From the NCBI GenBank assembly GCA_963737425.1, contig CAVTSX010000008.1, forward strand, positions 353,681 to 417,680: a DNA stretch of 64,000 bases, written 5' to 3'. The position numbers were made by a program, and so were the translations under genes. Below, in pieces: positions 6,086 through 39,964 of the stretch (its first letter is position 1; every line of letters starts with the position of its first letter). The stretch comes from an uncultured Actinomycetota bacterium. GTDB lineage: Bacteria; Actinomycetota; Actinomycetes; Mycobacteriales; Jatrophihabitantaceae. The notes below the pieces were generated by a model. That model did no database searches and was not told the origin of the DNA. It was given only the letters and a program-made list of their open reading frames with translations.

Positions 6086-6090
6086 GTCGA

Positions 6091-14150: not shown

Positions 14151-14166
14151 GTCGCCGGATGTAGCG

Positions 14167-14211: not shown

Positions 14212-14217
14212 GTCCGG

Positions 14218-16105: not shown

Positions 16106-16117
16106 GCGCCGAAGGTA

Positions 16118-16137: not shown

Positions 16138-16157
16138 GCAAGTAGAGGCATCTGCCC

Positions 16158-17132: not shown

Positions 17133-17137
17133 GCGGC

Positions 17138-25261: not shown

Positions 25262-26602
25262 GTGAAACTGGCCGTTCTCGGTGGCGGTGGGTTTCGGGTG
25301 CCGCAGGTGTACCGGGCCCTGCTCGGCGACACCGGCGAACCCCGGGTCACCGACGTCGCCCTCTACGACCCGTCGCCCGAACGTCTCGCGGTCATCGAGT
25401 CCGTGCTGGCGCAGCAGTCGGCCGGCGTCGCGGATGCGCCGCGGGTGGTCTCGACGTCTCACCTGTCAGAGGCGCTGGACGGCTCCGACTTCGTGTTCTC
25501 CGCAATTCGCGTCAGTGGCCTGGAGGGCCGTACCCGCGACGAACGCGTAGCCCTGCGGCTGGGTGTTCTCGGCCAGGAGACCACCGGCCCGGGCGGAATC
25601 GCCTTTGGCTTAAGGACAATCCCGACCGCGCTTCAGGTGGCCGAGCGGGTGGCCGCATTGTGCCCGGACGCGTACGTCATCAACTTCACCAACCCCGCCG
25701 GCATGATCACCGAGGCGATGCAGCGGGTTCTGGGCGAGAAGGTCATCGGCATCTGCGATACGCCCGAAGGGCTCGGCCGTCGCGTAGCCGCCGCCGTGGG
25801 CGTCAGCGCGTCGCAGGTGCAATTCGACTACGTCGGGCTCAACCATCTCGGCTGGATGCGTCGCGTGCTCTGCGACGGGCGAGATGTGCTGCCTGATCTG
25901 CTCGCCGACGACACCCGGCTGGCCGGCCTGGACGAGGCCGCGATCTTCGGCGTCCCGTGGCTGCGAACGTCGGGGTGCATCCCCAACGAGTACCTGTACT
26001 ACTACTACTTCAATCGCGACGCGATCCGGTCGATCCTCGATCACGGCGCGACGCGCGGCGAGTTCCTGCTCGGGCAGCAACGCGACTTCTACGCCGCGGC
26101 GGCGGCCGCACCCCAGCAGGCGTTCGAGCTGTGGCAGCGCACCGTCGACGAGCGAAGCGCGCTGTACATGGCCGAGGCCAAGCACGGCCGCGCCGAACCC
26201 GAGCCTGCGCAGGCGGGCGGTTACGAGCAGGTCGCGCTGGCGGTGATGACCGCGATCGCCCGCAACGAGCCGGCCACGATCATCCTGAATGTTCGCAACG
26301 GCACGGCCGTCGACGGCCTGGACGCCGACGCCGTCGTCGAGCTGCCGGCGCTCGTCGACTCGGCCGGGGTGCATCCACTACCTGTCCAGCCGCCCGACCT
26401 GCACCAGATCGGGCTGATGCAACAGGTCAAGGCGGTCGAGCGGTTCACGATCGAGGCGGCGGTGACCCGCTCGCCCGATGCGGCGCTGAAGGCGTTCGCG
26501 TTGCATCCCCTCGTCGATTCGGTTTCTGTGGCTCGCGATTTGCTGCGTGGCTACGTCGAGGCGATCCCCGAAGTGGCCTCCGCCCTGGGGCGGCGCGACT
26601 AG
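25262..26602 (+). CDS. Glycoside hydrolase family 4 (6-phospho-glucosidase-like)
   Basis: MKLAVLGGGGFRVPQ NAD-binding N-terminus, INFTNPAGMITEA, GICDTP, NHLGW. Confidence 0.85.
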   Translation: MKLAVLGGGGFRVPQVYRALLGDTGEPRVTDVALYDPSPERLAVIESVLAQQSAGVADAPRVVSTSHLSEALDGSDFVFSAIRVSGLEGRTRDERVALRLGVLGQETTGPGGIAFGLRTIPTALQVAERVAALCPDAYVINFTNPAGMITEAMQRVLGEKVIGICDTPEGLGRRVAAAVGVSASQVQFDYVGLNHLGWMRRVLCDGRDVLPDLLADDTRLAGLDEAAIFGVPWLRTSGCIPNEYLYYYYFNRDAIRSILDHGATRGEFLLGQQRDFYAAAAAAPQQAFELWQRTVDERSALYMAEAKHGRAEPEPAQAGGYEQVALAVMTAIARNEPATIILNVRNGTAVDGLDADAVVELPALVDSAGVHPLPVQPPDLHQIGLMQQVKAVERFTIEAAVTRSPDAALKAFALHPLVDSVSVARDLLRGYVEAIPEVASALGRRD

Positions 26603-26607
26603 CCGCG

Positions 26608-28584
26608 CTACCCGCCCGTGCTCGACGCCAGGTCGTACACCGTCGTGTTGCCGACCGCCTGGGCCGTGAACGTCGAGGTGATCCATTGCTGGATCTGGTA
26701 CGCCGTCGAGGATTGCGCGTTGCCCGAGCCGATGAAGCCTGACGCGTCCGCTACGTAGTAATGCACCTTTCCTTGCGCCACCAGTTGTTTGAACGCGCTG
26801 AGCGAGATTGCCGGGTCAGTGCCGTTGTAGCCGCCGAGCGACATCGCCGCCTGGCCGGTGCCCAGCTCGAGCGAGGCCGCCTCGTTGTCGCCGGTCGTCG
26901 CGGCAACCCAGCGGTAGGCACCGGCATTGGCCGTGAGCAGTGCCTTGAGCGAGGCGTCTACCGTCGACGCGCCGCCGAGACCGCCGCCGCCCATCGCGCC
27001 GCCGCCCATCGCGCCGCGGCCGGTCCCGAGGCCGCCTGGTGCTAAGCCCGGATTGCCGCCGGGCGCGCCCTGTCTCGTGCCGGGTGGCCCGTTCCGGGGT
27101 CCACCGGGTCCGCCGCCGAAGGTGCTGGATGCCGGCCCGGCACTCGGAATCGCGCCGGTGTGTGCGGTAGAGGCGGTCTGCAGCGAGTACGCGACCGGCC
27201 CAGCGAGCAGTGCGACGGCGACGGTCGTCGCCACGAGCCGGGCCGAACGAGCCGCGAGTACAGCGCCGACTGCGGCGGCGCCCGCGAGCAGAACGACCCA
27301 GCGCAGCCAGGGCGTCCAATCGCTGCGGCCGAGAAGTTCGAAAGTCCACCAGCTTGCGGCCGCCACGAGCGCTGCGAGCGTCAGCCGCGCTCCCTCGCTG
27401 TGGCGTGACCGCCAGAGCGTGGCCACACCCAGGCCGACCAGGGCAGCGATCGCCGGTGCCAATGCCACTGTGTAGTACGGGTGGATGATCCCGCTCGCGA
27501 AGCTGAGCACGGCGCCGGTGACGAGCAGCCAGCCACCCCAGACGATGAGACTCGCCCGTAACGCGTCGGTACGCGGACGGCGGGCGGTCAGCCAGGCCAG
27601 GGCGGCGATCGCGACGAGAGCCGCAGGCAACAACCAGCTGATCTGCGCACCCATTTCGGTGCCGAACAGCCTGGTCAGGCCGGTCTGTCCGGACGAGAAG
27701 CCACCGGTTCGGCCGCTGACGTTGCCGTTGTTGCTCGTCCCGTCCAACCGGCCGAGTCCGTTGTAGCCGAACGTCAACTCCAGGATGCTGTTGCCGTTCG
27801 AACCGCCGATATAAGGACGGGATCCGGCTGGCCACAACTCGACGAGCGCAATCCACCAACCGGCCGCGACGATCATCGTGCCGAGCGCTGCCGTGAGGTG
27901 CCCGACCCGGCGCCAGGGGGTGGTCGGGGCCGCGACCAGATAGGCAGCGCCGAGGCCGGGCACGACGAGCAGGCCCTGCAGCATCTTGGTGAGGAACGCG
28001 AAGCCGATCAGCGCTCCGGCGAGCATGAGCCAGCGCGCGCTTGCTCGCTCCGTCGCCCGTACCGTGGCGTATGCAGCCGCCGTCATCAGCAGGACGAGCA
28101 GCGCATCGGGGTTGTCGAAGCGGAATATCAGCGTCGCCACCGGCGTGGCTGCCAGAATCGCGCCGGCGAGCAACCCGGCAGTGGGCGTCGACACTCTCCG
28201 TACTGCGGCGTACAGAAGTGCGACAGCGGCCATGCCTTCCAATGCCTGTGGAACAAGGATTGACCACGAGCTCAACCCGAAGAGCCGGACCGAGAGGTCC
28301 ATGACCCATAGCGAGGCAGGCGGCTTGTCGACGGTGATGAAGTTCGACTGGTCGAGGGAGCCGAACAGGAATGCCGTCCAGCTCTTGCTGCCCGACTGGG
28401 CGGCGGCCGCGTAGAACTGATTCGCCCACCCGGATCCGGACAGACCCCACGTGTACAGCGCGGCCGTCGCGGTAAGCAGCACGGCCAACGCCGGTGGGCA
28501 CTTACGCCGCAGGTGGGCACTTGCAAGTGCCCACCTGGACGCGAACTGCCCACCCGCGGGGGGAGCGGCGAGCCTCGTGGTCAT
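26608..28584 (-). CDS. Glycosyltransferase family 39 (ArnT/PMT-like) membrane protein with extracytoplasmic C-terminal domain, paralogue 1
   Basis: WANQFYAAAAQSGSKSWTAFLFGSLDQSNFITVDKPPASLW, multiple TM segments, Gly/Pro-rich linker. ATGA overlap with paralogue 2. Codons 10-31 are repeat copy C. Confidence 0.85.
   Translation of the reverse strand: MTTRLAAPPAGGQFASRWALASAHLRRKCPPALAVLLTATAALYTWGLSGSGWANQFYAAAAQSGSKSWTAFLFGSLDQSNFITVDKPPASLWVMDLSVRLFGLSSWSILVPQALEGMAAVALLYAAVRRVSTPTAGLLAGAILAATPVATLIFRFDNPDALLVLLMTAAAYATVRATERASARWLMLAGALIGFAFLTKMLQGLLVVPGLGAAYLVAAPTTPWRRVGHLTAALGTMIVAAGWWIALVELWPAGSRPYIGGSNGNSILELTFGYNGLGRLDGTSNNGNVSGRTGGFSSGQTGLTRLFGTEMGAQISWLLPAALVAIAALAWLTARRPRTDALRASLIVWGGWLLVTGAVLSFASGIIHPYYTVALAPAIAALVGLGVATLWRSRHSEGARLTLAALVAAASWWTFELLGRSDWTPWLRWVVLLAGAAAVGAVLAARSARLVATTVAVALLAGPVAYSLQTASTAHTGAIPSAGPASSTFGGGPGGPRNGPPGTRQGAPGGNPGLAPGGLGTGRGAMGGGAMGGGGLGGASTVDASLKALLTANAGAYRWVAATTGDNEAASLELGTGQAAMSLGGYNGTDPAISLSAFKQLVAQGKVHYYVADASGFIGSGNAQSSTAYQIQQWITSTFTAQAVGNTTVYDLASSTGG
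28492..28555. repeat. 64-bp dyad element, family 1, copy C (in frame, 5' end of GT39 paralogue 1)
   Basis: CGGTGGGCACTTACGCCGCAGGTGGGCACTTGCAAGTGCCCACCTGGACGCGAACTGCCCACCC. The centre at 28511-28536 is a perfect 26-bp palindrome. Read in the gene as GGQFASRWALASAHLRRKCPP. Confidence 0.9.
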
Positions 28585-30590
28585 GAGGTGGCCGTCGTCA
28601 GGTCGTAGACGGTGGATGCACCGACGGTGGTTGCCGTGTAGTTCGCCGCGACCCAGTTGGCGATCTCGCTGTTACCGCCGCCCGGACCGCCCCCGCCGGC
28701 CGCTATGTAGTAGCTGATGTCGCCCGCCGCGACGTATGCCTTGAACTGCGCGAGGGTGGGCGCCGGGTCCGAACCGCTCCAGCCACCGATTGCCATGACG
28801 GCCTTGCCGCTCGCCAGTTCGAGTGACGCGGCGCTCTGGTCCCCAACGGTCGCTGCCGCCCAGCGGGTAGTCGCCTTTTTGAGCAGGCTGGTCAGGGCCG
28901 AATTCGCGGTACTGCCGCCCGAGCCGCCCGTGCCTCCCGTGCCGCCCGTGCCGCGACTCGGCAAGCTGCCGCTCGGTGGCGTGCCGCCTTGCCCGCCGCC
29001 CGGTGCGCCGCTCGGTGGTGTGCCCCTTTGCGTGCCGCTCGGTGGCGTGCCGCCTTGCCCGCCGCCCGGCGCACCGCCCAGACCTCCTCGTGCGTCACCG
29101 ATGCCCGAAGTCACTGCCGGCCCCGCCGAGGGCGTGCTGCCGTTGTGGGGTGCAGCGGCCGTACTCAGCGCATACGCCGACGACGCGCCGGTGGCGACGA
29201 CCAGTCCGACGACGCCGACGGCCATGGCGCCGCGAGCCAGCCGTTGTGGCGGCACGAGCAGCGCGACGGCAGTGCCGAGGGCGAGCACGAGCAGCAGTGG
29301 GCGCAGCCACGGGTTCCAATCAGGTGAGCGCGAAAGCAGTTCGAAGCTCCACGCTCCGGTCGCCGCGACGCCGGCCGCGAGGGCCACGCGGGCGCCGAGG
29401 CGGGATCGGTTGCGCCACATGACGACCGAGCCGACGCCGACCAGCGCGGCGATCGGCGGTGCCAGTTCAACGGTGTAGTAGGGATGGATGATGCCGCCCG
29501 CATAGCTCAGCACCAGGCCGGTGACAACGAGCCAGCCACCCCAGAGCACAGCTGCAGCGCGCACCTTGTCGACGCGTGGCGTCCCCCGGCTGATGACAGC
29601 CAGCGCGACGAGCGCGATCAATGCTGCTGGCAGCAACCAGGAGATCTGCGTGCCCATTTCGGAGTTGAACAGCCGGCCCGGCCCGGCGGGACCGCTGAAG
29701 TTCGGCCCGCCTCCGCCGCCTGCACTGCCCGTCTCGTCGCCGGTGATGCGGCCGAGCCCGTTGTAGCCGAAGGCAAGGTCTAGCGCGCTGTTGTTCTTCG
29801 AGCCGCCGATGTATGGACGATCCGACGCCGGCCACAGCGCGACGGCAAGCACCCACCAGGCCGCTCCCGCGGCAAGCGCGACGCTCGCTGCGAAAAGGTG
29901 CGCGAGTCGCCGGCGCAGGGTGCCGTTCGAGGCGAGGAGGTAGAACAGCGCCAGAGCGGGTAGCACGGTGAACGGCTGCAGGCCCTTGGTGAGGAAGTTC
30001 AGGCCCATGACGCCGCCCGCCAGCAGCATCCACCGCAGCCGACCGTCGTCCACTGCGCGGGTGACGAAATAGGCCGCCGCGACAAGGAGAAGCGTCATCA
30101 GGGCGTCTGGCTGGTCGAACCGAAACATCAGGACGGCCACCGGGGTGACGGCGAGCAGGCCGCCGGCGATGAGACCGGCGACCGGCCCGAACCATCTCCG
30201 TACCGTGGCGTATAGAAGCGCTACGGCTAGGACTCCCTCAAGGGCCTGCGGCACCAGCAGGGTCCAGCTGTTGAAGCCGAAGAGCCGTCCGGCCAGCTCC
30301 ATCGGCCAAAGCGACAGCGGTGGCTTGTCGACGGTGATGAAGTTCGACTGGTCGAGCGATCCGAAGAAGAACGCCTTCCAGTTCTTCGTTCCCGCCTGGA
30401 CGGCGGCGGCGTAGAACTCGTTGCCGTATCCCGAAGCCGAGAGCCCCCACAGGTAGAGCAGCGCCGTCGCGCCGAGCAAAGCTACCAACGTGGGTGGGCA
30501 CTTACGCCGCAGGTGGGCACTTGCAACTGCCCACCTGCGCGGCAACTGCCCACCGGTGGAGGGGGCGGGCGGCGTCAATACAGCAGTCAT
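28581..30590 (-). CDS. Glycosyltransferase family 39 (ArnT/PMT-like) membrane protein, paralogue 2
   Basis: YGNEFYAAAVQAGTKNWKAFFFGSLDQSNFITVDKPPLSLW. ATGA overlap with the GT2 gene stop. Codons 12-33 are repeat copy D. The GTPPSG-repeat linker sits before the C-terminal domain. Confidence 0.85.
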   Translation of the reverse strand: MTAVLTPPAPSTGGQLPRRWAVASAHLRRKCPPTLVALLGATALLYLWGLSASGYGNEFYAAAVQAGTKNWKAFFFGSLDQSNFITVDKPPLSLWPMELAGRLFGFNSWTLLVPQALEGVLAVALLYATVRRWFGPVAGLIAGGLLAVTPVAVLMFRFDQPDALMTLLLVAAAYFVTRAVDDGRLRWMLLAGGVMGLNFLTKGLQPFTVLPALALFYLLASNGTLRRRLAHLFAASVALAAGAAWWVLAVALWPASDRPYIGGSKNNSALDLAFGYNGLGRITGDETGSAGGGGGPNFSGPAGPGRLFNSEMGTQISWLLPAALIALVALAVISRGTPRVDKVRAAAVLWGGWLVVTGLVLSYAGGIIHPYYTVELAPPIAALVGVGSVVMWRNRSRLGARVALAAGVAATGAWSFELLSRSPDWNPWLRPLLLVLALGTAVALLVPPQRLARGAMAVGVVGLVVATGASSAYALSTAAAPHNGSTPSAGPAVTSGIGDARGGLGGAPGGGQGGTPPSGTQRGTPPSGAPGGGQGGTPPSGSLPSRGTGGTGGTGGSGGSTANSALTSLLKKATTRWAAATVGDQSAASLELASGKAVMAIGGWSGSDPAPTLAQFKAYVAAGDISYYIAAGGGGPGGGNSEIANWVAANYTATTVGASTVYDLTTATS
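28971..29069. repeat. 33-bp tandem repeat (3 units, outer two identical) in the GT39 paralogue 2 linker
   Basis: GCTCGGTGGCGTGCCGCCTTGCCCGCCGCCCGG at 28971-29003 and 29037-29069, with a diverged unit between them. It encodes the GGTPPSG-type repeats. Confidence 0.85.
30492..30555. repeat. 64-bp dyad element, family 1, copy D (in frame, 5' end of GT39 paralogue 2)
   Basis: GGGTGGGCACTTACGCCGCAGGTGGGCACTTGCAACTGCCCACCTGCGCGGCAACTGCCCACCG. Read in the gene as GGQLPRRWAVASAHLRRKCPP. Confidence 0.9.
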
Positions 30591-31804
30591 GACGCGTCCT
30601 TCCGAGAGGCGAAGACCCAGTGCCGCAGCAGGACGAATCGCAGCACGGTGGCGGCGAGGTTCGCCGCGACCAGCACCGTGACCTCGATGAGTCGAGGCGG
30701 ATCGGCGTACGCATGGGCAAGCAGGGCAAGGGAGCCGCTCGTCAGCGCAAGGCCGAGGCCGAACACGACCAGGCCCTGCGCCTGGTGGCGGGCAACGCCG
30801 TCCGCGCCGACCACGCCGAACGTAAACCGGCGATTGGCCGCCGTGTTGGCGACAGCAGTGAGCAGCAAGGCAGCGAGATTGGCCGCCTGGGCTCCGAGCG
30901 GGGCGCGTAGCAGCAAGAACAGCACGAGGTACGCGATCGTCGACAGAACGCCGATCGAAGCGAAGCGAATCGCCTGCCAGGAAAGGGGTTTCGGCACCCC
31001 GGGCACGTCGATCGGATGCCGGCCGAATTGCCGGCGCAGGTCCCGCAGCGGCAGCGCGCCGGTGGCGAACGCGCGCCCGAGTCGCGCAACGCCGCGCAGA
31101 TCGGCAAGAGCGGTAGCCGCGATATCCACGCGGCTGTCCGAGTCGTCGATCCAGTCGACCGGTATCTCGGCGATTCGCAGTCCAGTGCGTTCAGCGAGCA
31201 CGAGCAGTTCGGTATCGAAGAACCATCCCGTGTCATGCACATGGGGCAGCAGGGCACGTGCGCAGTCGGCACGCATCGCCTTGAAGCCGCATTGCGCGTC
31301 GGAGAACCGAGCATGCAACGCCATACGCAGAAGCAGGTTGTAGCAGCGGGAGATCAGCTCGCGCTTCGGACCGCGCACGACACGGGCCGAGCGAGACAGC
31401 CGGCTGCCAATTGCGACGTCGCTGTGTCCCGACATGAGTGGCGCGACCAACGGCAGCAACGCGGAGAGGTCGGTGGAAAGGTCCACGTCCATATAGGCGA
31501 CGACTGTTGCAGTGCTGACGGACCACACATCGCGCAGTGCCCGACCGCGTCCCTTGGCATTGAGGTGCTTGACGCGAACGTCGGGGTATTCAGCGGCCAA
31601 CGCGTACGCACGGGGCAGAGTCGCGTCCGTGCTGGCGTTGTCGGCGATCGTTATCAACGTGCTGAATGGGAATTGCTCGAGGTACTGGTGCAGCCGGCGG
31701 ATGCAGGGCTCGAGGTCTTCCTGCTCGTTATGCACCGGGACGACGATCTCGACATCGACCGTGCCTGCCTCAGTCGGTCCGCGTACTTCGCGCAACGCGT
31801 GCAT
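30587..31804 (-). CDS. GT2 polyprenyl-phosphate glycosyltransferase fused to a GtrA-like membrane domain
   Basis: VEIVVPVHNE, ITIADNASTD and VAYMDVDLSTD GT2 motifs. C-terminal GtrA-like TM region (TAVANTAANRRFTFG). ATG at 31804 with GGTGGA SD. A GTG at 31813 directly abuts the ferredoxin stop and is an alternative start. Confidence 0.85.
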   Translation of the reverse strand: MHALREVRGPTEAGTVDVEIVVPVHNEQEDLEPCIRRLHQYLEQFPFSTLITIADNASTDATLPRAYALAAEYPDVRVKHLNAKGRGRALRDVWSVSTATVVAYMDVDLSTDLSALLPLVAPLMSGHSDVAIGSRLSRSARVVRGPKRELISRCYNLLLRMALHARFSDAQCGFKAMRADCARALLPHVHDTGWFFDTELLVLAERTGLRIAEIPVDWIDDSDSRVDIAATALADLRGVARLGRAFATGALPLRDLRRQFGRHPIDVPGVPKPLSWQAIRFASIGVLSTIAYLVLFLLLRAPLGAQAANLAALLLTAVANTAANRRFTFGVVGADGVARHQAQGLVVFGLGLALTSGSLALLAHAYADPPRLIEVTVLVAANLAATVLRFVLLRHWVFASRKDAS

Positions 31805-31813
31805 GAGATCCAC

Positions 31814-32008
31814 CTATCGAGTCGTCAGCCGCAGGGCAAGCGCGGGGCACAAGGCGACGGCACGCCGGGTGTCACGCTCGGCGCCGTGCGACACGGGCTT
31901 CGCCGCGATGATCGGGTAGCCCCACTCGTCGCGAGTGATCTGCGCCGGCAACAGTTCTGCGCACAGGCCGTGGCCGTCGCAGCGGGTCCAGTCGATGTCA
32001 AGTTTCAC
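31814..32008 (-). CDS. Small ferredoxin
   Basis: GTG start (VKLDIDWTRCDGHGLCAELLP...AVALCPALAL) with GTGA overlap on the NuoF-like stop. Single-cluster ferredoxin Cys pattern. Confidence 0.7.
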   Translation of the reverse strand: MKLDIDWTRCDGHGLCAELLPAQITRDEWGYPIIAAKPVSHGAERDTRRAVALCPALALRLTTR

Positions 32009-33228
32009 GGTGTCACCTCGAGAAATCCGCGGACGGGTCTCCCGCATCCGCCATAGGTCAGGTGTGTCTCGATCTCCTGACGCAGAGCCCGCAGTCCCGA
32101 CATGACGAAACGCGAGGCGCCGCCAGGGTGGTGGCAGGCGCCGCGGCCGTCGACGAGTTGCGCATGGCGGGCCGCGGCGGCAAGACCCTCGCGGGTACCA
32201 GCCGTCAGGGCCGCGATGTCACGTGCGAGGGCAGGCAGGCCGAAGTGGCAAGGCCCGCATTGATGCGCCGACTGGGCCGCCAGCCAATCGGCTACCCGGG
32301 TCAATTCGCCAAGCGCACACGTGCTGCTGTCAAGTACTTGCAGGACGCCTGCTCCGAGAGTGCCGTTGGCTTCGCCCACGCCGGCGCGGGACAGCCGCAT
32401 CTGTGGCAGCGGAGGGTGCCATGTTCCGTGGTATCCGCCGATGACCAGGGTCTGCGGATCAACGGCTCCCGCCGCGGATAGGACGATGCCGAGCGGTGTG
32501 CCCAGCGGGATCTCGACTACACCCGATCGGGTCACGGCACCGCCGATGGTGAGCAGCGTCGTGCCGGGCTCGGCAGTCGTCCCCGTGTCGCGGAAACGGT
32601 GCGCCCCCAGCCGCAATGCCACGGCGATATGGGCGAAAGTCTCGGCGTTGGAGAGCAACGTGCCGTGTTCGGTGAGGTGGACGCGGCGGCCCGGGGGGAG
32701 TGCCGGGCCGCCGCCGAGTCCTCGCACGAGCGCGCGCGCCTCGCCTGAGACGAACCCGCCGAGGACGCTTTCGACGCGAACCTTCGACGCGTCGTGACGC
32801 CGGCCGATAGCCCGCTGCACACTCACGCCGGCATCGGCGTCGTGCACCGCGACCGTCACGGTTCGAGCGCCGATTGCGGCGGCGACCGCCAGCGCGCCGT
32901 CGAGAACGAGGTGCGGCGTGCGGCGAAGTAGCGTGCGGTCCTTGAAGCTCGCCGGCTCGCTCTCACTGCCGTTGACGACAATCGCGCCGTTCCGCTCGGG
33001 CATTGCACGAAGCTTGGTCGCGAACGGGAATCCAGCGCCGCCACGTCCGGTCAGCGCGATCGACTCGAGAAGCGCGGTCAGGCGGGCCCTGTTCGTTTGC
33101 GGCATCGCGCCGTGCACCGCGAGGTGCGCGGCGTGGTCGACGGATTCGTAGCTGTCGAGCCCGGCCAGCAGTCGCGGCGCGCCGATCGCCCAGGGACGGG
33201 TGGTGGGGGCGACAAGGGTGGCGGTCAT
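32005..33228 (-). CDS. NuoF-like protein (NADH-ubiquinone oxidoreductase-F Fe-S binding region family)
   Basis: GRGGAGFPFATKL FMN/NADH-site motif, NGSESEPASFKDR, C-terminal Cys cluster SAHQCGPCHFG...GACHHPGG. Start MTATLVAPTT with ATGA overlap (33225-33228). Confidence 0.8.
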   Translation of the reverse strand: MTATLVAPTTRPWAIGAPRLLAGLDSYESVDHAAHLAVHGAMPQTNRARLTALLESIALTGRGGAGFPFATKLRAMPERNGAIVVNGSESEPASFKDRTLLRRTPHLVLDGALAVAAAIGARTVTVAVHDADAGVSVQRAIGRRHDASKVRVESVLGGFVSGEARALVRGLGGGPALPPGRRVHLTEHGTLLSNAETFAHIAVALRLGAHRFRDTGTTAEPGTTLLTIGGAVTRSGVVEIPLGTPLGIVLSAAGAVDPQTLVIGGYHGTWHPPLPQMRLSRAGVGEANGTLGAGVLQVLDSSTCALGELTRVADWLAAQSAHQCGPCHFGLPALARDIAALTAGTREGLAAAARHAQLVDGRGACHHPGGASRFVMSGLRALRQEIETHLTYGGCGRPVRGFLEVTP

Positions 33229-33785
33229 CGCATCGCTCCTACGACGACGCCGCGCCGGGCCTGCCCGCCCAGCCGCACTGCCACCGAGGCGATCACTGCG
33301 ATGAGGCACATCGCCCACAGCGTCCGAACCCAAGCCAGGCTCGCGTCAGTTCCGGCCGTCAGCCCGTGCAACATCGCGAGAGCCCAGCCTCCATACGCCA
33401 GCGCATGGATGCCGCGCCAGACCGCCGCACCACGGGCCGATGCCGCGAGACGTCCGCGCGCAAAGCCCAACGCGGCGATCGCGATGAAGAGGTAGGCCGC
33501 GATCGAACCGAGCGCCACCGCGTTCGGCCGGTATGCCGCTGCGAATGGGACGAGGGCACCGCGCACACCGACGCCCGCGTGCGCGTCGGCGAGAACCGTA
33601 CCCAGGTGTACGGCGATCAGGCCGAGCCCGAGTGCCGCCGCGGCGCGGTGCATGTACTGCATGACCACGCGCGTCGACGCCGAACGGATCTTCACCGATG
33701 TGAGAGCGCCCAGCGATGTCGCCAGTGTCAGCGCGACGAGCGCCGCCAGTCCAGCCCCACGTGCCGTGTACCAGAGTGTCATCAC
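33225..33785 (-). CDS. Ferric-reductase-like transmembrane (di-haem b type) protein
   Basis: Six hydrophobic segments. Two His pairs spaced 13-14 residues apart in TM helices (HRAAAALGLGLIAVH and HALAYGGWALAMLH), as in FRD/NOX/MsrQ-type haem ligation. Confidence 0.75.
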   Translation of the reverse strand: MMTLWYTARGAGLAALVALTLATSLGALTSVKIRSASTRVVMQYMHRAAAALGLGLIAVHLGTVLADAHAGVGVRGALVPFAAAYRPNAVALGSIAAYLFIAIAALGFARGRLAASARGAAVWRGIHALAYGGWALAMLHGLTAGTDASLAWVRTLWAMCLIAVIASVAVRLGGQARRGVVVGAMR

Positions 33786-34696
33786 GCCACCGCCGCCGCT
33801 GCGTGTTCCGGCCAGCCGGCTGTCGTGTGCACTTGCCCGTCGACGCCGACCAGCCGGGCGGCCAGGTGCCGAGCGGTCAGCCAGTCGACGGCGTCCTCTC
33901 CGAGGACGATGGCCGCCGTGCTGGCAATGTTCGCGGCCAGCGCGAGAGGTGCGTACACCGAGGCCGTCCGCCAGGGTCCGTCCGCCGGTGCGCCGGTGCG
34001 TGGGTCGATGATGTGATGGACGTTCTGCTTGCCGCGCTGCCAGGTTCTGACCGTCGTGGTCGAAGTGGTCAGGCCACCGTGCCGGAGTACGACGGTCTGC
34101 CCAGGCGCGTCCTCGCGTTCGGCCACCCGCACGGGCCAGCCGCCGCGCGGATCGCCTGCGACAGCGATATCGCCGCCCAGTTCGACGAGCACGGCCGTGC
34201 TGTAGCGCCGGGACAGCGCACGTGCCGCGTGATCGGCGGCGTACGCCTTGGCGGTCGCGCCCAGGTCGAGGGCAACTCCGACCGGGACGATGAGCAAGCC
34301 AGCCTCGCGATACAGCCGCACGTCCTGCCAGCTACGTGCCTGGGGGCACGCGTCGATCGCCGGTCCTTGGGCGGGGATATCGGCGATGTCGCAGTCGTAG
34401 CCGATGCGGTGCATCGCGAGGCCGACAGTTGGGTCGACGGCGCCACCGGTCTGGTCGGCTCCGTCGAGAGATGCCTTGACGAGATCAGCGAGCATGCGGG
34501 GCACCGGCACCGGGCGTCCCGCGTTGGCATTGGCGATCGAAAGGTCCGAGTCCGGGCGGAATCTGCTGGCCATGCGGTCGATCCGGTCGAGCAATGCCCG
34601 AAGATCAGCGGCGGCCGGAGCGAGCGCCCGGCGGTCCTCGACGACGAGCCGCACCGTGCAGCTCCACGTCCGAAACACATGGGTGTGCGTACTCAT
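33782..34696 (-). CDS. apbE: FAD:protein FMN transferase ApbE
   Basis: ASRFRPDSDLSIAN, LDLGATAKAYAADHAA, GGDIAVAG, HHIIDPRTG - classic ApbE motifs. Confidence 0.9.
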   Translation of the reverse strand: MSTHTHVFRTWSCTVRLVVEDRRALAPAAADLRALLDRIDRMASRFRPDSDLSIANANAGRPVPVPRMLADLVKASLDGADQTGGAVDPTVGLAMHRIGYDCDIADIPAQGPAIDACPQARSWQDVRLYREAGLLIVPVGVALDLGATAKAYAADHAARALSRRYSTAVLVELGGDIAVAGDPRGGWPVRVAEREDAPGQTVVLRHGGLTTSTTTVRTWQRGKQNVHHIIDPRTGAPADGPWRTASVYAPLALAANIASTAAIVLGEDAVDWLTARHLAARLVGVDGQVHTTAGWPEHAAAAVA

Positions 34697-34983
34697 GATC
34701 CATTGCTCCCGCCCACGGTGGTCGAGCTCTGGCTACCTGCGCTGAGCCCGCTGTTGTTGCTGGACGACGTGGCGGCGCTTGTCGGTGTGCTGCTCGTCGG
34801 GGTGCTCGTGGTCGAATTGTTCGACGTCGTGGTGGTGGTCGTGGTCGTGCCTGCCGGCTGCGCAGCGGAGTGTCCGACCGCCGAGACGAGCGTTGCGGTG
34901 AGCGCGACGCCGGCTGAGCCGATCCCAAAGGCGGCAAGACCGGCGCGGTTCAGCAGGCGCCTGGTCGGAGGTTGTGTCGTCAT
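34693..34983 (-). CDS. Tat-signal, Thr/Ser-rich 96-aa secreted mini-protein
   Basis: MTTQPPTRRLLNRAGLAAFGIGSAGVALTATLV (twin-Arg signal) followed only by low-complexity TTTTTTTTSNNSTTSTPTSSTPTSAATSSSNNSG... ATGA overlap with apbE. It occupies the slot where an FMN-binding-domain protein would be expected. Confidence 0.55.
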   Translation of the reverse strand: MTTQPPTRRLLNRAGLAAFGIGSAGVALTATLVSAVGHSAAQPAGTTTTTTTTSNNSTTSTPTSSTPTSAATSSSNNSGLSAGSQSSTTVGGSNGS

Positions 34984-35123
34984 GGGTCGACTGTCGCGTC
35001 AGGACCATCAGCCCCGCGTCACCGCAAGATCAAGCCCGTCCTAAGGCGGCTTAGGAACCCGCTGAGGTGCGACCCCGAACCCGGCGCCCACGGCAGCGCC
35101 CGAAACGCGCTGCAATCGGTCGG

Positions 35124-36461
35124 CTACGGCGGGCCCAGCTCCAGCGTGATCTGCGCCCCGCCCGACGGCGAGCGTCCCACGCGCAGGGAGCCACCCGACG
35201 TTTCGGCGCATTGCCGGGCGATGTCGAGGCCCAACCCGCTTGAGCCGCGGTCGCTACGGCCGCGCTCGCCGGCGCCTTCGGGCAATCCGGGGCCTTCGTC
35301 GCTTACGACGAGGGTTGCTCCGCTCTCCGACGCGGCCAGGGTCACCGCGAACGGCGTGCCCTCCGGGGTATGCGCAATGACGTTCTCCAGCAGGGCATCG
35401 ACCGCCGCCGCCAGGTCTTCGGCCGATGCTCGCACCGGAAGCGGAGAGTCCGGCAGCGAGATCTCGCGGTGTCGCTCCTGATCGTCGGCCAGCGCCGACC
35501 AGAAGCTGACCCGCGATGCGACGACTGACGTCGCGTCGGCCGAGGGCAGCAGCCCTTCACGTTGGGGCCGGCGGGCAGCGCGGATCACGGCGGTCAGGGT
35601 GCGCTCCAGCGACGTGACGTGCGCTCCGATCCGCTCGGCCTCATCGGCGTCGCGTAGCCCTTCGGCGTCCAGACGAAGGGCCGTCAACGGCGTACGCATG
35701 CGGTGCGACATGTCGGCGACGGTCTCGCGCTCTTCGGCGATGAGTTCGTCGATGCGATCGGCGAGCAGGTTCAGCGCCGATCCGACCTCGGCGATCTCGC
35801 GCGGGCCCGACGTGGGCGCCCGCGCCGTGACGTCGCCGGTGCTGAGCCGCCGGGCCGTCTGCGCGGTACGCACCAGCGGCGCAACGATTCGCCGGGTCAG
35901 CAACTCCCCGCCGATCACCCCGATCAGGAGCAGCCCGACGCTGCCCGCCGCGATCAGCGCGTACCAGCGTCCGACGCCGTTGTTGAGCGAATTGGTGGAC
36001 GCGAACACGCTGATCCGATAGGTGCCAGTCGGGATGCGCGTGAAGAGCTCGGCGACCTTGCCGCCTGGCACGTTGCGCAACTGGGCGTTGTTGGGCGGCG
36101 GTCCGCGAACGGGGCCGGTTCCTTCGCCGGACGTCTCCGCGGGATTTCCCGCACCCTCGTCGGACGGACGCGGGCCGGCGTTGTCGCCCTCTCGCTCGGT
36201 GCCGAGGACGGTCCCGTCGGGCATCTGCACCGACGTGCTGCGATTGTCGTCTTGCTGGAGCTTGTCCAGATAGGTCGTGATCGTGCTCGTGGTCGGGGTG
36301 CCGGTACCGAGGAATTGCGCGACGGACTGAGCCTGATCGCGGATCGAACGCTCGCCGCGCTGCTCCACCGCCGAGCGCACCATCAGCGCCACCGGCACCG
36401 CGAAAGCCAACACCACGAGGACGGTGATGCCGGTGACGAGCAACAGGATCCGGCGTCGCAT
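35124..36461 (-). CDS. Sensor histidine kinase (two TM, HAMP, HisKA, HATPase_c)
   Basis: H-box ADMSHRMRTPLTAL, N/G boxes (LLENVIAHTP, VSDEGPGLP, GSSGLGLDIA). Immediately follows the response regulator (TGAATG). Confidence 0.85.
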   Translation of the reverse strand: MRRRILLLVTGITVLVVLAFAVPVALMVRSAVEQRGERSIRDQAQSVAQFLGTGTPTTSTITTYLDKLQQDDNRSTSVQMPDGTVLGTEREGDNAGPRPSDEGAGNPAETSGEGTGPVRGPPPNNAQLRNVPGGKVAELFTRIPTGTYRISVFASTNSLNNGVGRWYALIAAGSVGLLLIGVIGGELLTRRIVAPLVRTAQTARRLSTGDVTARAPTSGPREIAEVGSALNLLADRIDELIAEERETVADMSHRMRTPLTALRLDAEGLRDADEAERIGAHVTSLERTLTAVIRAARRPQREGLLPSADATSVVASRVSFWSALADDQERHREISLPDSPLPVRASAEDLAAAVDALLENVIAHTPEGTPFAVTLAASESGATLVVSDEGPGLPEGAGERGRSDRGSSGLGLDIARQCAETSGGSLRVGRSPSGGAQITLELGPP

Positions 36462-37148
36462 TCAGGCCTCGGGCGCCGCGAGCCGCACGCCGACCCCACG
36501 GACGCTGTGCAGGTACCGCGGATGCTTGGCCGATTCGCCGAGCTTGCGACGCAGCCACGACAGGTGCACGTCGACTGTGCGGTCCGAGCCGCCCCAGGCG
36601 AGCTGCCAGACCTCGGCGAGCAGATCGCGTTTCGTGACGACCTCGCCGGGGTGGCGGGCGAGGGCGAGCAGTAGGTCGAACTCCTTGCGGGCAAGTTCGA
36701 CCGGCTGGTTGTCGAGGCTGACCTCGCGGCTGCGGGTGTCGATATGCAGCCCGCCCAACACGATCGTCGGATCCTCTTCCTCGGCACGACCGGAGCGGCG
36801 CAGCACCGCCCCGATCCGCGCGTTCAGCTGTGCCGCCGTGAACGGCTTGATCACGTAGTCGTCCGCGCCGAGGTTGAGCAGTCGCACCACATCGGCCTCG
36901 TCGTCTCGCGCCGTCGCGATGATCACCGGGACATCGCTGACGGCGCGCAGCATCGAGAGCACGTCCGCGCCGTCGATGTCGGGAAGCCCCAGATCGAGCA
37001 GGACGACGTCCGGGCGCTGTTCGACCGCGGCCGTCAGCGCCGGCATACCCGAGCCCACGCTTGTGACGACGTGCCCGTGATCGTGCAGGGAGCGGGTCAG
37101 GGCAACGCGTATCGCCGCGTCATCCTCGACCAGCAGCACCTGCGGCAT
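36462..37148 (-). CDS. OmpR/PhoB-family response regulator
   Basis: MPQVLLVEDD...DVVLLDLGLPDIDG receiver domain. C-terminal winged helix (EFDLLLALARHPGEVVTKRDLL...VDVHLSWLRRKL). Start at 37148 avoids overlap with the upstream gene. The track start at 37205 is an alternative. Confidence 0.9.
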   Translation of the reverse strand: MPQVLLVEDDAAIRVALTRSLHDHGHVVTSVGSGMPALTAAVEQRPDVVLLDLGLPDIDGADVLSMLRAVSDVPVIIATARDDEADVVRLLNLGADDYVIKPFTAAQLNARIGAVLRRSGRAEEEDPTIVLGGLHIDTRSREVSLDNQPVELARKEFDLLLALARHPGEVVTKRDLLAEVWQLAWGGSDRTVDVHLSWLRRKLGESAKHPRYLHSVRGVGVRLAAPEA

Positions 37149-37155
37149 CGAGGTG

Positions 37156-37515
37156 CTAGCGCTGCGGTTCGTCGCCGTCGGGACGGTCGCGACGGATGTC
37201 GTCATTGAGCCGGCGCAGGAACTCGGGGTCGTCGTCCGGCGCGATCGATCGTCGCGACGGACCCGCGGACGAGCCGGAGTGGCCCTGCCAGCCGAAGGGA
37301 GACCGCGGAGCGCGCACGTTCACCGATGCGCGTGGCCGGCCCCAGATGAACCAGGCGATGGCGCCGATGTCGAGCAGCAGCAGGACGATGATCAGCCAGA
37401 TCGCCTTGGGCAGGGTGCGGATGCGCTCAGCCGGCGCGGTGAGAGCGTCGAAGATTGCGTACAACCATGCAAGAACCGCGATCAGGGTGAATACGCCGCC
37501 GAGCCGGATGAACAT
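37156..37515 (-). CDS. Small membrane protein with PLD-nuclease N-terminal (PLDc_N) type domain
   Basis: MFIRLGGVFTLIAVLAWLYAIFDAL...LPKAIWLIIVLLLLDIGAIAWFIWGRP, two TM helices and a basic/acidic tail. Confidence 0.65.
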   Translation of the reverse strand: MFIRLGGVFTLIAVLAWLYAIFDALTAPAERIRTLPKAIWLIIVLLLLDIGAIAWFIWGRPRASVNVRAPRSPFGWQGHSGSSAGPSRRSIAPDDDPEFLRRLNDDIRRDRPDGDEPQR

Positions 37516-37568
37516 GCGTCCAGCGTATGCCTCCACAGCCGGGAGAGCCTTAGGCCGATACTGACGGG

Positions 37569-39032
37569 GTGGGATTCACGGATTTGCAGGATTTTCTGGC
37601 CGCGCTCGAGCGTGATGGCGATCTCGCGCGGGTGCGCGTACCCGTCGACCCCCACCTCGAGGTGACCGGCATAGTGCAGCGAGCCGTACGCGAGCAGGGC
37701 CCCGCCCTGCTGTTCGAGAACCCCACCCGCGGGCGGCTCCCGCTCGCGATCAACGTCTTCGGTACGCAGCGGCGCATGGCGCGCGCACTCGGCGTCGATC
37801 ATCTGGACGAGATCGGCGAGCGCATCGGCGAACTCCTCAAGCCCGAGTTGCCCCGCGGCATCGGCGGGCTGCGCGACGCGCTGGGCAAGGCGGCCCAGCT
37901 GCGCGCTGCCCCACCGCGGCGGGTGAAGGTCGCCCCGGTGCAGGAGATGGTCTACAAGGACGACGAGGTTGATCTCGCCATCCTGCCCGGCATCAAGGCA
38001 TGGCCCGACGACGGCGGGGTGTTCCTCAATCTGGGTCTGACCCATACGAAGCATCCCGAGACGGGCGCGCGAAATCTGGGCATGTACCGCCTGCAGATGC
38101 ACGACCAGCGCACGGTCGGGCTGCACTGGCAGATCCACAAGGACTCCACCTCGCACGCCGCGATCGCCGAGCGGCTCGGCGAGCGGCTGCCGGTGGCGAT
38201 CGCGTTCGGCTGCCCGCCCGCGGTCACGTACGCGGCGAGCGCGCCGCTGCCCGCCGACATCGACGAGTACCTGTTTGCCGGCTTCGTGCGGCGCGAACGC
38301 GTCGAACTCGTCGACTGCCTGTCCGTTCCGCTACAGGTGCCCGCTGCGGCGCAGGTCGTCCTCGAAGGATGGGTGACGCCTGGCGAGCGCCTGCCCGAGG
38401 GGCCGTTCGGCGACCACACCGGTTTCTACACGCCGGTCGAGCCGTTCCCGTTCATGCGGGTCGAGACGATGACGATGCGGTCCGACGCCGTCTACCAGTC
38501 GATCATCGTGGGCCGCCCGCCCCAGGAGGACGGCCCGATCGGCAAGGCGACCGAACGCATCTTCCTTCCCTTGCTGCGATTGACGATTCCCGAGATCGTC
38601 GACTACGACCTGCCCGAGGCAGGCGTCTTCCACAACTGTGTGATCGTGTCGATCGACAAGCGTTTCCCGAAGCACGCGCAGAAGGTGATGAACGCGATCT
38701 GGGGCGCGGGCCTGATGTCGTTGTCGAAGCTGATCGTCGTGGTCGACGCCGACTGCGATGTGCACGACTACGCCGAGGTCGCGTGGCGCGCGTTCGGCAA
38801 CGTCGACTACGCCCACGACGTGCAGCACACCGTCGGCCCGGTCGACCACCTCGACCACTCGTCCTACGAGCAGTTCTTCGGCGGCAAACTCGGGGTGGAC
38901 GCCACGCGCAAACTGCCGAGCGAGGGCTACCGCCGCGGCTGGCCGGCCGAGTGCGTGCTCGACGAGGCGACGACCGCCCGGGTTACGCGCCGCTGGAGCG
39001 AGTACGGCATCGGCCGCGGCGACAGCCGATGA
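37569..39032 (+). CDS. ubiD: UbiD-family decarboxylase (menaquinone late-step decarboxylase type)
   Basis: LQDFLAALERDGDLARV N-terminus, GMYRLQ, FGDHTGFY. Followed by UbiA- and UbiX-like genes. Confidence 0.9.
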   Translation: MGFTDLQDFLAALERDGDLARVRVPVDPHLEVTGIVQRAVREQGPALLFENPTRGRLPLAINVFGTQRRMARALGVDHLDEIGERIGELLKPELPRGIGGLRDALGKAAQLRAAPPRRVKVAPVQEMVYKDDEVDLAILPGIKAWPDDGGVFLNLGLTHTKHPETGARNLGMYRLQMHDQRTVGLHWQIHKDSTSHAAIAERLGERLPVAIAFGCPPAVTYAASAPLPADIDEYLFAGFVRRERVELVDCLSVPLQVPAAAQVVLEGWVTPGERLPEGPFGDHTGFYTPVEPFPFMRVETMTMRSDAVYQSIIVGRPPQEDGPIGKATERIFLPLLRLTIPEIVDYDLPEAGVFHNCVIVSIDKRFPKHAQKVMNAIWGAGLMSLSKLIVVVDADCDVHDYAEVAWRAFGNVDYAHDVQHTVGPVDHLDHSSYEQFFGGKLGVDATRKLPSEGYRRGWPAECVLDEATTARVTRRWSEYGIGRGDSR

Positions 39033-39964
39033 CCGACCCCGTTCGCGATGAGGTTGAGCAATCGCCCGGCCCAGGCGTGAAGGCCGGTCCTACGGGTGGC
39101 GTAAGGAAGTTCTTCCGGCTGGTCATGATCGAGCACTCGGTATTCGCCCTGCCGTTCGCCTACATCGCGGCGCTGACGGCGATGTGGAGTGAGAGCCGCT
39201 CGGTGCACTGGTGGGAGCTGGTGCTCATCACGGTCGCCATGGTGTCGGCTCGGACGGTGGCGATGAGCGCCAACCGCATCCTCGACCGCGGCTTCGATGC
39301 GCTGAACCCCCGTACCGCCAAGCGCGAACTGGTCACCGGCGAGATGTCGGTGCGTTCGGCGTGGACGGGCACTGTCGTCGCCCTGGTGGTGTTCCTGGCC
39401 TCGGCGGCTGCGCTGTCGTGGCTGTGCCTGGTGCTGGCGCCGGTCGCGGTCGGGCTGCTCGTCCTCTACTCGTACGGCAAGCGGTTCACCGACTTTCCGC
39501 AGGTGCTGCTTGCGCTTGCGCAGATGGTGGCACCGGTCGGGGCGTGGCTCGCCGTCACCGGGCAGCTGAGCTGGGCCTCGTTCGCCTTGGGCCTCGCGGT
39601 CGGCACGTGGATCGGCGGCTTCGATCTCATCTACTCCTGCCAGGACGCCGAGGTCGACCGGCGCATCGGCTCGCGCTCGTTCCCGGCACGGTTCGGCATT
39701 CCGGCCGCCTTGCGCGCGTCCGCGATCGTGCACGTCGGCACGTTCGCCTGCTTCGCATGGTTCGGTGCCGCCGCAGGTCTTGGCTGGTTGTGGTGGACGG
39801 GCCTGGCGCTCACCGCGGTCGTCCTCGCCTACGAGCACCGCATCGTCCGCGCCGACGACCTGAGCCGGGTGAACCGCGCGTTCTTCACCGCCAACGGCGT
39901 CATCGGCATCGGACTGTTCGGGTTCGCTCTGGCCGACCTGATCGTCCAAGGGCTGGGCGCATGA
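39029..39964 (+). CDS. ubiA: UbiA-family aromatic prenyltransferase (menaquinone prenylation type)
   Basis: ATGA overlap with the ubiD stop. IEHSVFALPFAYIAAL, NRILDRGFDALNPRT (NxxxD motif), CQDAEVDRRIG (second Asp-rich motif). Confidence 0.85.
   Translation: MTDPVRDEVEQSPGPGVKAGPTGGVRKFFRLVMIEHSVFALPFAYIAALTAMWSESRSVHWWELVLITVAMVSARTVAMSANRILDRGFDALNPRTAKRELVTGEMSVRSAWTGTVVALVVFLASAAALSWLCLVLAPVAVGLLVLYSYGKRFTDFPQVLLALAQMVAPVGAWLAVTGQLSWASFALGLAVGTWIGGFDLIYSCQDAEVDRRIGSRSFPARFGIPAALRASAIVHVGTFACFAWFGAAAGLGWLWWTGLALTAVVLAYEHRIVRADDLSRVNRAFFTANGVIGIGLFGFALADLIVQGLGA

Follow-up and report, generated by a model that had tools for sequence, protein, structure and literature searches.

The gene block described here raises the question of why genes for flavin-dependent electron transfer and genes for polyprenyl-phosphate glycosylation stand together in one closely packed array. 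The block lies on the minus strand of a 64,000-nt stretch of the Jatrophihabitantaceae contig CAVTSX010000008.1 (assembly GCA_963737425.1); this whole stretch is referred to as the window, and all coordinates are positions in it. An earlier note on this DNA had described ten minus-strand genes and had proposed that they form one integrated, undescribed envelope system. All of the open reading frames (ORFs) and overlaps that it listed, together with a 140-nt gap and a palindrome, were found where it had placed them, and its statement that no characterised pathway joins the two halves stands. The single integrated system does not, since the redox half and the glycosyltransferase (GT) half are each widespread and mostly occur apart (67 of 80 and 33 of 35 loci, respectively). 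The block unites two envelope modules of known kinds in a lineage-specific fusion, and its most interesting element is a 96-aa mini-protein that had been treated before as a mere curiosity. The model that we favour, and that we hold to be somewhat likelier right than wrong, is a composite of two-component control, an NADH-driven electron-export module and a lineage-specific glycosylation cassette.

The redox half was traced with an alignment of NuoF-like homologues, which was scanned against a single genome for each species. Relatives are encoded at 568 or more loci, of which the best 80 were mapped. Relative loci from this and other scans are given L-numbers where they need to be told apart; L029 and L081 are the same locus, and L163 is that of Streptomyces CP106798.1. 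The 80 loci span much of Actinomycetota and include Jatrophihabitantaceae, Nocardioides, Kribbella, Streptomyces, Amycolatopsis, Nocardia, Leifsonia, Streptosporangiaceae, Acidimicrobiia and Gaiellaceae. Genes for a 186-aa membrane protein, called FRD below, and for a ferredoxin adjoin the NuoF-like gene in 76 of the 80, the ferredoxin gene following it in nearly all, and an ApbE gene is found within 4 kb in 65. Any GT gene was found within 10 kb in 13. In Streptomyces CP106798.1 the order is response regulator (RR), histidine kinase (HK), a 132-aa ORF, ApbE, a Ferric_reduct protein, the NuoF-like protein and a Fer4_15 ferredoxin, with 4-nt overlaps. All-against-all clustering of the ORFs of the NuoF-anchored loci revealed no further conserved gene 3′ of the ferredoxin gene that would name a terminal acceptor. 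Judged by gene order, the redox module is a widespread, self-contained actinobacterial unit. Clusters of this kind have been noticed before: Méheust et al. 2021 (eLife) described ‘MsrQ-like’ flavinylation clusters as broadly conserved in Actinobacteria, counted 31 that include a NuoF-like (PF10589) protein, and proposed that they export electrons across the membrane to an extracytosolic flavin (PMC8238504). Our literature searches found no experimentally characterised NuoF-like/MsrQ-like flavinylation cluster, and those on the Streptomyces two-component system, on ApbE with NuoF, and on flavinylated small or disordered proteins yielded nothing relevant beyond Méheust 2021 and its follow-ups. 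Among the mapped loci, L020 carries duplicated redox genes (FRD-NuoF, then ApbE-FRD-NuoF-ferredoxin) and L044 two complete, convergent ApbE-FRD-NuoF-ferredoxin sets. The Streptomyces L163 module (2187-17347) lies about 130 kb from a chromosome end, and its surroundings, with Usp, cNMP-binding and CBS/BON genes as well as a V-type ATPase operon, resemble a stress island; a connection of this locus with the OsdR stress island found no support in the retrieved literature and is not claimed.

Most of the labels proposed earlier for the proteins of the block were borne out by Pfam; GT39, given to both large GTs, was not, and the ferric-reductase-like label was reached only through homology. The NuoF-like protein (32005-33228) is predicted to be a soluble NADH-binding flavo-iron-sulfur protein, with matches to Complex1_51K (PF01512, 108.5 bits) and NADH_4Fe-4S (PF10589, 45.5 bits). 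The FMN and NADH motifs GRGGAGFP and ESEPASxKD are invariant in its family, and its nearest solved relatives are NuoF, HydB and HoxF (E 1e-31). It is not the NuoF of complex I: it scored 145.6 bits against TIGR01959, for which the cutoff is 558.65, and no nuo genes were found by Pfam among its neighbours in the window. In its CxxCxxC motif another residue stands in place of the first cysteine (QSAHQCGPC versus ESCGKCTPC, residues ∼320-327 of the window protein), and C304, C365 and C395 are invariant as well, which suggests an altered ligation of the Fe-S cluster. The small single-cluster ferredoxin (31814-32008; Fer4_15, 46.6 bits) has the pattern CxxHxxC...CP of the actinobacterial type and resembles the Mycobacterium tuberculosis ferredoxin of 8amq. 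The ApbE-family FAD:protein FMN transferase (33782-34696; PF02424, 177.6 bits) is predicted to be cytoplasmic. No signal peptide or lipobox was found in it, its Pfam domain begins at residue 14, and a stop codon just 5′ of the start bars an N-terminal extension in the window and in about 35 other loci.

The FRD protein (33225-33785) belongs to a family with four invariant histidines, arranged in the alignment as H-x13-H and H-x12-H on two helices with a spacing like that of the ferric-reductase domain. The Streptomyces CP106798.1 orthologue matches PF01794 (38.8 bits versus a cutoff of 28), and the window family aligned with this orthologue in hhalign at a probability of 99.7 and E 3e-25; the window protein can be tied to PF01794 by transitive homology only. 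An AlphaFold (AF2) model with a pLDDT of 81 has five helices, and its only meaningful match in the PDB is the di-haem cytochrome b561 4o6y (prob 0.99, TM 0.59, E 0.29). Searched against PDB sequences, the family profile gave no match even at E 10, and an hhalign comparison with the Escherichia coli cytochrome b561 YodB gave a short, non-significant match at the level of motifs. By these alignments and this fold, FRD is probably a divergent ferric-reductase/MsrQ-like di-haem b electron conduit. Its earlier description as di-haem and ferric-reductase-like was thus right in substance, although the window protein lacks a Pfam match of its own. Direct membership of the MsrQ family is not claimed, given the comparison with E. 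coli MsrQ reported below.

The only conserved ORF of the module left without an assignment is that of the mini-protein (34693-34983). It has a basic N-terminus (TRRLLNR), one hydrophobic helix, a disordered linker rich in serine and threonine, and a C-terminus that reads GGSNGS-stop; it had no match in Pfam (E up to 10) or NCBIfam. Corresponding ORFs are located directly 5′ of ApbE, or of FRD where ApbE is not adjacent. The C-terminal motif [ST]-[GNHS]-[GAS]-S-stop was present in 59 of 70 such syntenic ORFs and in only 21 of 4561 (0.5%) background ORFs of similar size from the same loci. All 59 motif-bearing ORFs have the final serine and an uncharged helix of about 20 residues, and 45 of them have RR, RK or KR within the 15 residues before the helix. 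The low-complexity linker varies in composition and in length (33-157 residues). That the two ends share one reading frame although the linker carries large indels speaks for a coding ORF. Exact endings differ between lineages: GGSNGS in the window, GTHAS or GSNAS in Nocardioides, TSGGS in Streptosporangiales and Acidimicrobiia, and TTTGAS, with an exact T-G-A-S, in Streptomyces and Nocardia. A stricter [ST]-G-[AG]-S ending is found in 26 of the 70 relatives. The distance from the stop codon to the next start ranges from −9 to +95 nt, and the motif does not differ between the 32 loci with a stop that overlaps the next start and the 27 loci in which the stop precedes it by 1-95 nt. A Shine-Dalgarno footprint was considered as the source of the motif and is ruled out by its retention at gaps of 18-95 nt. 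In L042, L057 and L072 the ORF chosen 5′ of ApbE ends in GG rather than S, and L054 gave no candidate ORF.

ApbE recognises the motif D-x-x-[S/T]-G-A-[S/T] and joins FMN to its last residue; the Asp is dispensable, and substitutions of the Gly or Ala merely reduce the yield (PMC12052999). Terminal tags of seven residues, known as Flavin-tag (Tong et al. 2021, reviewed in PMC12052999), are efficiently flavinylated. Since the C-terminal motif of the mini-protein family resembles this one, we propose that the mini-protein is the substrate of ApbE, a natural flavin tag on a flexible tether that would carry FMN on its last serine. ApbE without a signal peptide, together with the twin-arginine-like N-terminus of the mini-protein, suggests that flavinylation would take place in the cytoplasm and be followed by export or anchoring of the Tat type. 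The window has T-R-R-L-L-N before the helix, compared with [ST]-R-R-x-F-L-K for Tat signals, and the pattern fits any membrane anchor with an N-in orientation. Neither the ten window proteins nor the Pfam-annotated contexts of L081 and L163 yielded FMN_bind, DUF2271 or DUF3570.

The GT half consists of three genes. The first encodes a fusion of a GT2 (GT-A) polyprenyl-phosphate glycosyltransferase with a GtrA flippase (30587-31813; Glycos_transf_2, PF00535, 68.4 bits; GtrA_DPMS_TM, PF04138, 49.2 bits), called GT2 below. The other two encode the GT-C glycosyltransferases GTC1 (28581-30590; PMT_2, PF13231, 112.3 bits; YkcB_C, 97.7 bits) and its paralogue GTC2 (26608-28584; PMT_2, 109.6 bits; YkcB_C, 84.7 bits), which are 52% identical. 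Neither is a Pmt enzyme, with 19.9 bits against NF058602 (cutoff 800) and no match to Pfam PMT (PF02366), nor an ArnT of family GT83 (18.7 bits against NF009784, cutoff 567); the GT2 protein is likewise not ArnC (30.8 bits, cutoff 529). The multi-component transmembrane glycosylation systems combine a GT-A enzyme, which loads polyprenyl phosphate with the sugar, with a GtrA-type flippase and a PMT_2 GT-C; they decorate teichoic acids and wall polysaccharides, and Bacillus subtilis YkcC/YkcB is an uncharacterised example (PMC8035078). In the window, Pfam finds GT-A and GtrA in one protein and PMT_2 GT-C in two. When the GT2-GtrA alignment was scanned on metagenome contigs, 80 loci of 58-82% identity were obtained, widespread in soil, and GT-C genes lie alongside in 53 of them. 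Among the 35 GT2-anchored loci with at least 3 kb of upstream sequence, 21 have an HK gene upstream, the usual layout being RR-HK-(GT-C)-GT2-GT-C, and redox genes occur in two, both from the window's own clade. By domain content and gene order, the GT half is a standard polyprenyl-phosphate glycosylation cassette that elsewhere has its own two-component system.

How the two modules came to be joined can be followed among close relatives. In a Jatrophihabitantaceae-like clade, in which the NuoF-like proteins are at least 58% identical, the cassette stands behind the ferredoxin gene in 12 genome loci and two metagenome contigs, so the adjacency extends beyond this strain. The ferredoxin-GT2 gap in the clade ranges from −4 to 88 nt, often with an ATGA or GTGA overlap, and the two genes overlap or abut at this junction in the window, L004, L011, L082 and L083. 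In L003 the spacer (11412-11500) holds a perfect 11-bp inverted repeat, GCCGGCCTCCG ... CGGAGGCCGGC, with no T-run, which may be an attenuator or terminator in that locus only. The closest relative, L029, has a NuoF-like protein that is 88% identical and other proteins that are 87-97% identical to those of the window. Its flanks are as in the window: UbiD, then PLDc_N-RR-HK and the redox genes, then a convergent GH4 gene and PfkB. At the site of the cassette, the ferredoxin gene runs directly to GH4 with no GT genes between them, and L002 is similar. The cassette is therefore a discrete presence/absence polymorphism of 5.2 kb, and the redox operon persists without it.

A second arrangement was found in an Acidimicrobiales metagenome-assembled genome (MAG), L079. 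There one strand encodes, in order, GT2, a GT87-like GT-C, a mini-protein that ends TTSGAS, FRD, the NuoF-like protein, ferredoxin, RR, HK, ApbE, a PMT_2/YkcB_C GT-C and LysE. The L079 regulator is 56% identical to regulators of GT cassettes and 33-36% identical to those of the redox type. The window regulator has the opposite affinity: it clusters with redox-type regulators, to which it is 46-84% identical, apart from those of GT cassettes, to which it is 38% identical (neighbour-joining tree without bootstrap). From these opposite affinities we conclude that the modules fused at least twice and kept different regulators. Two fusions are more than we would expect by chance and are the best evidence for a functional or regulatory advantage of the combination.

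The OmpR/PhoB-type RR (36462-37148; Response_reg, 94.5 bits; Trans_reg_C, 85.1 bits) could be extended as an ORF to 37205; its receiver domain begins at residue 23 of the long ORF (36462-37205), which makes the start at 37148 plausible. The RR scored below every NCBIfam equivalog cutoff, and the membrane sensor HK (35124-36461; HAMP, HisKA and HATPase_c by Pfam) below every NCBIfam cutoff. An RR and an HK are found near the redox genes in 45 of the 72 loci with sufficient upstream sequence. The RR is preceded by a gene for a small PLDc_N membrane protein of 126 aa (37156-37536; PF13396, 24.7 bits), which stops 7 nt ahead of the RR start, so that the same-strand block comprises eleven genes rather than ten; this gene is kept 5′ of the RR in L001, L002, L006, L009, L011, L028 and L029. 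In a Streptosporangiaceae group (L042, L054, L057 and L072) the RR-HK pair, whose RR is 58-59% identical to that of the window, lies 3′ of the ferredoxin gene and not 5′ of the mini-protein gene. In L014 (6530-8377), a Jatrophihabitans MAG, UbiD stands directly 5′ of the mini-protein and ApbE genes with no two-component system between, so the regulator pair can be lost or relocated within the clade.

The RR stop codon TGA directly abuts the HK ATG, and the 140-nt gap that follows HK (34984-35123) is the likely promoter/operator region of the next eight genes. About 95 nt before the ATG of the mini-protein gene are conserved in L029, L001, L002, L004 and L083, and in L029 and L001 this stretch persists even though the two-component system lies 4-5 kb off. 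This conservation at a promoter-proximal position without an adjacent two-component system indicates that the ten genes form at least two transcription units. In L081, positions 3505-8071 between HK and the mini-protein gene hold an ISL3-family transposase, a 72-aa ORF, a major facilitator superfamily (MFS) transporter and a 200-aa ORF, and L001 has a similar HK-mini gap of about 3.9 kb. The conserved stretch contains the motif CTTAGGACGGGCTTGA (35030-35045), which occurs once in the window and overlaps the right arm of the palindrome CCTAAG-n4-CTTAGG (35040-35055). The palindrome is present, and its right arm alone is conserved in relatives, which rules it out as a conserved operator. A scan of the region 5′ of the mini-protein gene for a consensus sigma-70 promoter gave no match, consensus promoter and terminator scans of 26000-38000 gave results at or below chance, and an Rfam scan of the whole window found no family, hence no FMN riboswitch or other known leader.

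The tight packing claimed for the last eight genes was read directly from the junctions, where every gap is 9 nt or less. ATGA overlaps join mini-protein to ApbE, FRD to NuoF, GT2 to GTC1 and GTC1 to GTC2; GTGA overlaps join ApbE to FRD and NuoF to ferredoxin; and the ferredoxin TAG is followed immediately by a GTG (31813), with an ATG 9 nt on (31804). This packing had been taken as a sign of obligatory co-translation, which goes too far: four-base overlaps, a common operon signature in high-GC genomes, permit translational coupling without demonstrating obligation. The eight genes from the mini-protein to GTC2 are probably expressed as one unit under a two-component system of the redox type; the small gaps, the lack of terminator-like sites above chance and the tight ferredoxin-GT2 junction in the clade agree with a single unit. 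GC3 lies between 0.79 and 0.87 in all genes of the block.

These observations bear on four other readings of the locus. The strongest challenge to our proposal for the mini-protein is that ApbE modifies another protein, or FRD, and that the mini-protein is a structural or docking subunit or an accessory of the kinase. The simplest target for a cytoplasmic ApbE would itself be cytoplasmic, the mini-protein gene stands beside the kinase gene whenever a two-component system is present, the window ending S-N-G-S fits S/T-G-A-S/T poorly, and about ten loci keep the mini-protein with no ApbE nearby. On the other side, the module holds no other conserved ORF lacking an assigned role, no FMN_bind gene was seen in the two annotated contexts, and reading of sequences and alignment columns by eye found no standout conserved [ST]G[AG][ST] in the NuoF-like protein or FRD; the exact TGAS ending in Streptomyces and Nocardia and the invariant terminal serine also speak for a substrate. 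We regard this alternative as a serious one that is nevertheless more probably wrong than right. A second possibility keeps the flavin-carrying mini-protein and makes the two halves one pathway, GT2-GtrA making a polyprenyl-phosphate sugar and the two GT-C enzymes O-glycosylating the tether, so protecting or positioning it in the wall. The tether is rich in serine and threonine in all GT-linked loci, with a median S+T fraction of 0.56 (n = 11; 0.51 in L079) versus 0.27 in the remaining 48 loci, the whole clade keeps GT2 close behind the ferredoxin gene, and the two independent fusions retain different two-component systems. The contrast in composition, which is largely phylogenetic, stems from only two independent events; similarly rich tethers occur where no GT genes adjoin (e.g. 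L016, L018, L021, L031, L046 and L069), and the closest relative combines such a tether with the absence of the cassette. Moreover, where PMT_2-type enzymes from cassettes of this kind have been characterised, they act on teichoic acids or wall polysaccharides and not on proteins (PMC8035078). We therefore judge glycosylation of the tether to be unlikely. A broader conjecture sees a natural flavin-tag family in at least several hundred actinobacterial species, Streptomyces among them: small disordered proteins, anchored or exported by Tat, that would receive FMN on the last serine from a cytoplasmic ApbE and stand in for the folded FMN-binding domain as outside acceptor of the conduit. Its further part, that the co-encoded GT-C enzymes target the S/T-rich tether in both fused lineages, would explain the two separate fusions of the modules; we consider the conjecture as a whole speculative, with the chances leaning against it.

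The remaining two readings concern the junction itself. The cassette might have been inserted between the ferredoxin gene and GH4 with an internal promoter of its own and with no functional or regulatory effect. Its presence or absence at a single syntenic site, its wide occurrence alone, gaps of up to 88 nt and the hairpin in L003 would all agree with such neutral juxtaposition. Yet the overlapping or abutting ferredoxin and GT2 genes of five loci leave no non-coding space for a promoter, the cassette has lost the two-component system that it carries elsewhere, and the fusion in L079 arose independently, so that we give mere neutrality a small chance. The smallest chance goes to the earlier reading of one obligatory system, in which electron transfer or flavinylation is needed for glycosylation, for example to reduce a lipid-linked keto-sugar outside the membrane. 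Polyprenyl-phosphate sugars are known to undergo redox steps in other three-component systems, as with DprE1/DprE2 (compare PMC11127046), and the close spacing of the eight genes and the recurrence of the arrangement, in the clade and once independently, would suit an obligatory link. Against it, Pfam found no sugar epimerase or reductase in the block, GT genes are absent within 10 kb of most redox loci just as redox genes are from most GT loci, and in the closest relative this site has no cassette; we consider this reading very improbable.

The composite model that we prefer would work as follows. The OmpR-type pair, with the PLDc_N gene ahead of it, would control a promoter 5′ of the mini-protein gene. 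The NuoF-like protein, as its domains indicate, would oxidise NAD(P)H in the cytoplasm, and electrons would pass from its Fe-S cluster to the ferredoxin and on to the two b-haems of FRD. The extracytoplasmic acceptor would be FMN joined by ApbE to the last serine of the mini-protein, which would take the place of a protein with an FMN-binding domain; this assignment follows from the motif, the synteny and the lack of an FMN_bind gene where Pfam annotation covered the locus. Flavinylation in the cytoplasm would precede Tat-type export or anchoring of the mini-protein. In this lineage only, GT2-GtrA and the two PMT_2/YkcB GT-C enzymes appear to have been set directly behind the ferredoxin gene, and from this position both modules are likely expressed as one unit. 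The coupling of separable modules is most simply seen as co-regulation of two envelope functions.

Several points weigh against the composite model. The window ending S-N-G-S departs from S/T-G-A-S/T at two positions and has no conserved Asp, a residue that is mostly absent among the mini-protein relatives as well. About 10 loci hold mini-FRD-NuoF-ferredoxin with no ApbE within 10 kb. The 186-aa FRD protein had no match in Pfam, even at E up to 10, or in NCBIfam, and its hhalign match to E. coli MsrQ was short, non-significant and at the level of motifs. The transcription units were deduced from spacing and conservation alone. Finally, the second fusion in L079 and the S/T-richer linkers hint at a functional link rather than mere co-regulation.

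Outside the block, a GH4 gene on the plus strand (25262-26602) is convergent with GTC2; the two genes end 5 nt apart (26602-26608), which leaves no intergenic space for a terminator hairpin. At the other end, genes for a UbiD-family decarboxylase and a UbiA-family prenyltransferase (37569-39964, plus strand) diverge from the block, and the synteny UbiA-UbiD-PLDc_N-RR-HK is retained in many members of the clade. These neighbours may be quinone-biosynthesis genes beside the redox operon.

Flavinylation of the mini-protein, should it occur, would be the first natural instance of ApbE acting on an unstructured terminal peptide instead of a folded domain, and the protein would define a minimal, flexible extracellular redox carrier. 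In the survey pipeline of Méheust et al., either ApbE or the FMN-binding protein had to have a signal peptide or lipobox (PMC8238504). Because earlier surveys required a signal peptide and a known substrate domain, they largely overlooked the module. Common as it is in soil Actinomycetota, Streptomyces included, the module would, if our proposal is true, give a tractable route to their extracellular reductions and to the signal sensed by the kinase. The two independent redox-glycosylation fusions offer a concrete hypothesis that links envelope redox chemistry to envelope glycosylation. Should the mini-protein prove not to carry flavin, the block would be no more than an ordinary fusion, within an operon, of two module types already known.

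Comparison with known systems shows what is shared and what is particular to this block. On the glycosylation side, CsbB/GtcA/YfhO, YkcC/YkcB and GtrABC follow the same scheme, in which a membrane-linked GT-A enzyme makes the C55-P-sugar, a GtrA-type protein flips it and a PMT_2 GT-C transfers the sugar outside. Here, in contrast, one protein combines GT-A with GtrA, the GT-C enzyme occurs as two paralogues with YkcB_C, and the cassette stands behind a redox operon rather than alone or behind its own two-component system. PmrAB-ArnC/ArnT, a system of lipid A modification, likewise places a GT2 polyprenyl-phosphate sugar synthase and a PMT_2-family GT-C under a two-component system; by their scores the GT proteins of the block are not orthologues of ArnC or ArnT, and the host is an actinobacterium without lipid A.

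On the redox side, the MsrQ-like clusters share the grouping of ApbE and a cytosolic NAD(P)H-binding donor with a PF01794-type di-haem protein, which in the window is assigned through transitive homology only. They differ in that here no FMN_bind gene was found and its place is taken by a mini-protein, disordered and with a motif at its C-terminus, the published pipeline would pass over most members for want of a signal peptide on ApbE, a dedicated ferredoxin and a two-component system belong to the unit, and the five-helix membrane protein is too divergent for Pfam in the clade. E. coli HprSR-MsrPQ also sets an OmpR-type RR/HK pair beside an MsrQ-family transmembrane electron carrier for extracytoplasmic redox chemistry, but the block has no MsrP-like molybdoenzyme, and its donor is a NuoF-like protein with a ferredoxin, whereas in E. 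coli it is quinol or Fre. NADPH oxidases, STEAP proteins and ferric reductases pass electrons along the same kind of route: a cytosolic nicotinamide donor feeds a flavin, and two stacked b-haems, ligated by the H-x13-H / H-x12-H pair, lead on to an acceptor outside. In the block a NuoF-like protein, encoded separately and accompanied by a ferredoxin, stands as dehydrogenase in place of a fused FNR-like domain, and a tethered FMN is the proposed acceptor on the outside. For that tether the closest counterpart is Flavin-tag, where a short terminal peptide ending in [S/T]-G-A-[S/T] suffices for ApbE and terminal tags work best. The motif in the mini-protein family is the relaxed, Asp-less [ST]-[GNHS]-[GAS]-S at the extreme C-terminus; Flavin-tag is artificial, and the family described here appears to be a natural one that uses the same principle.

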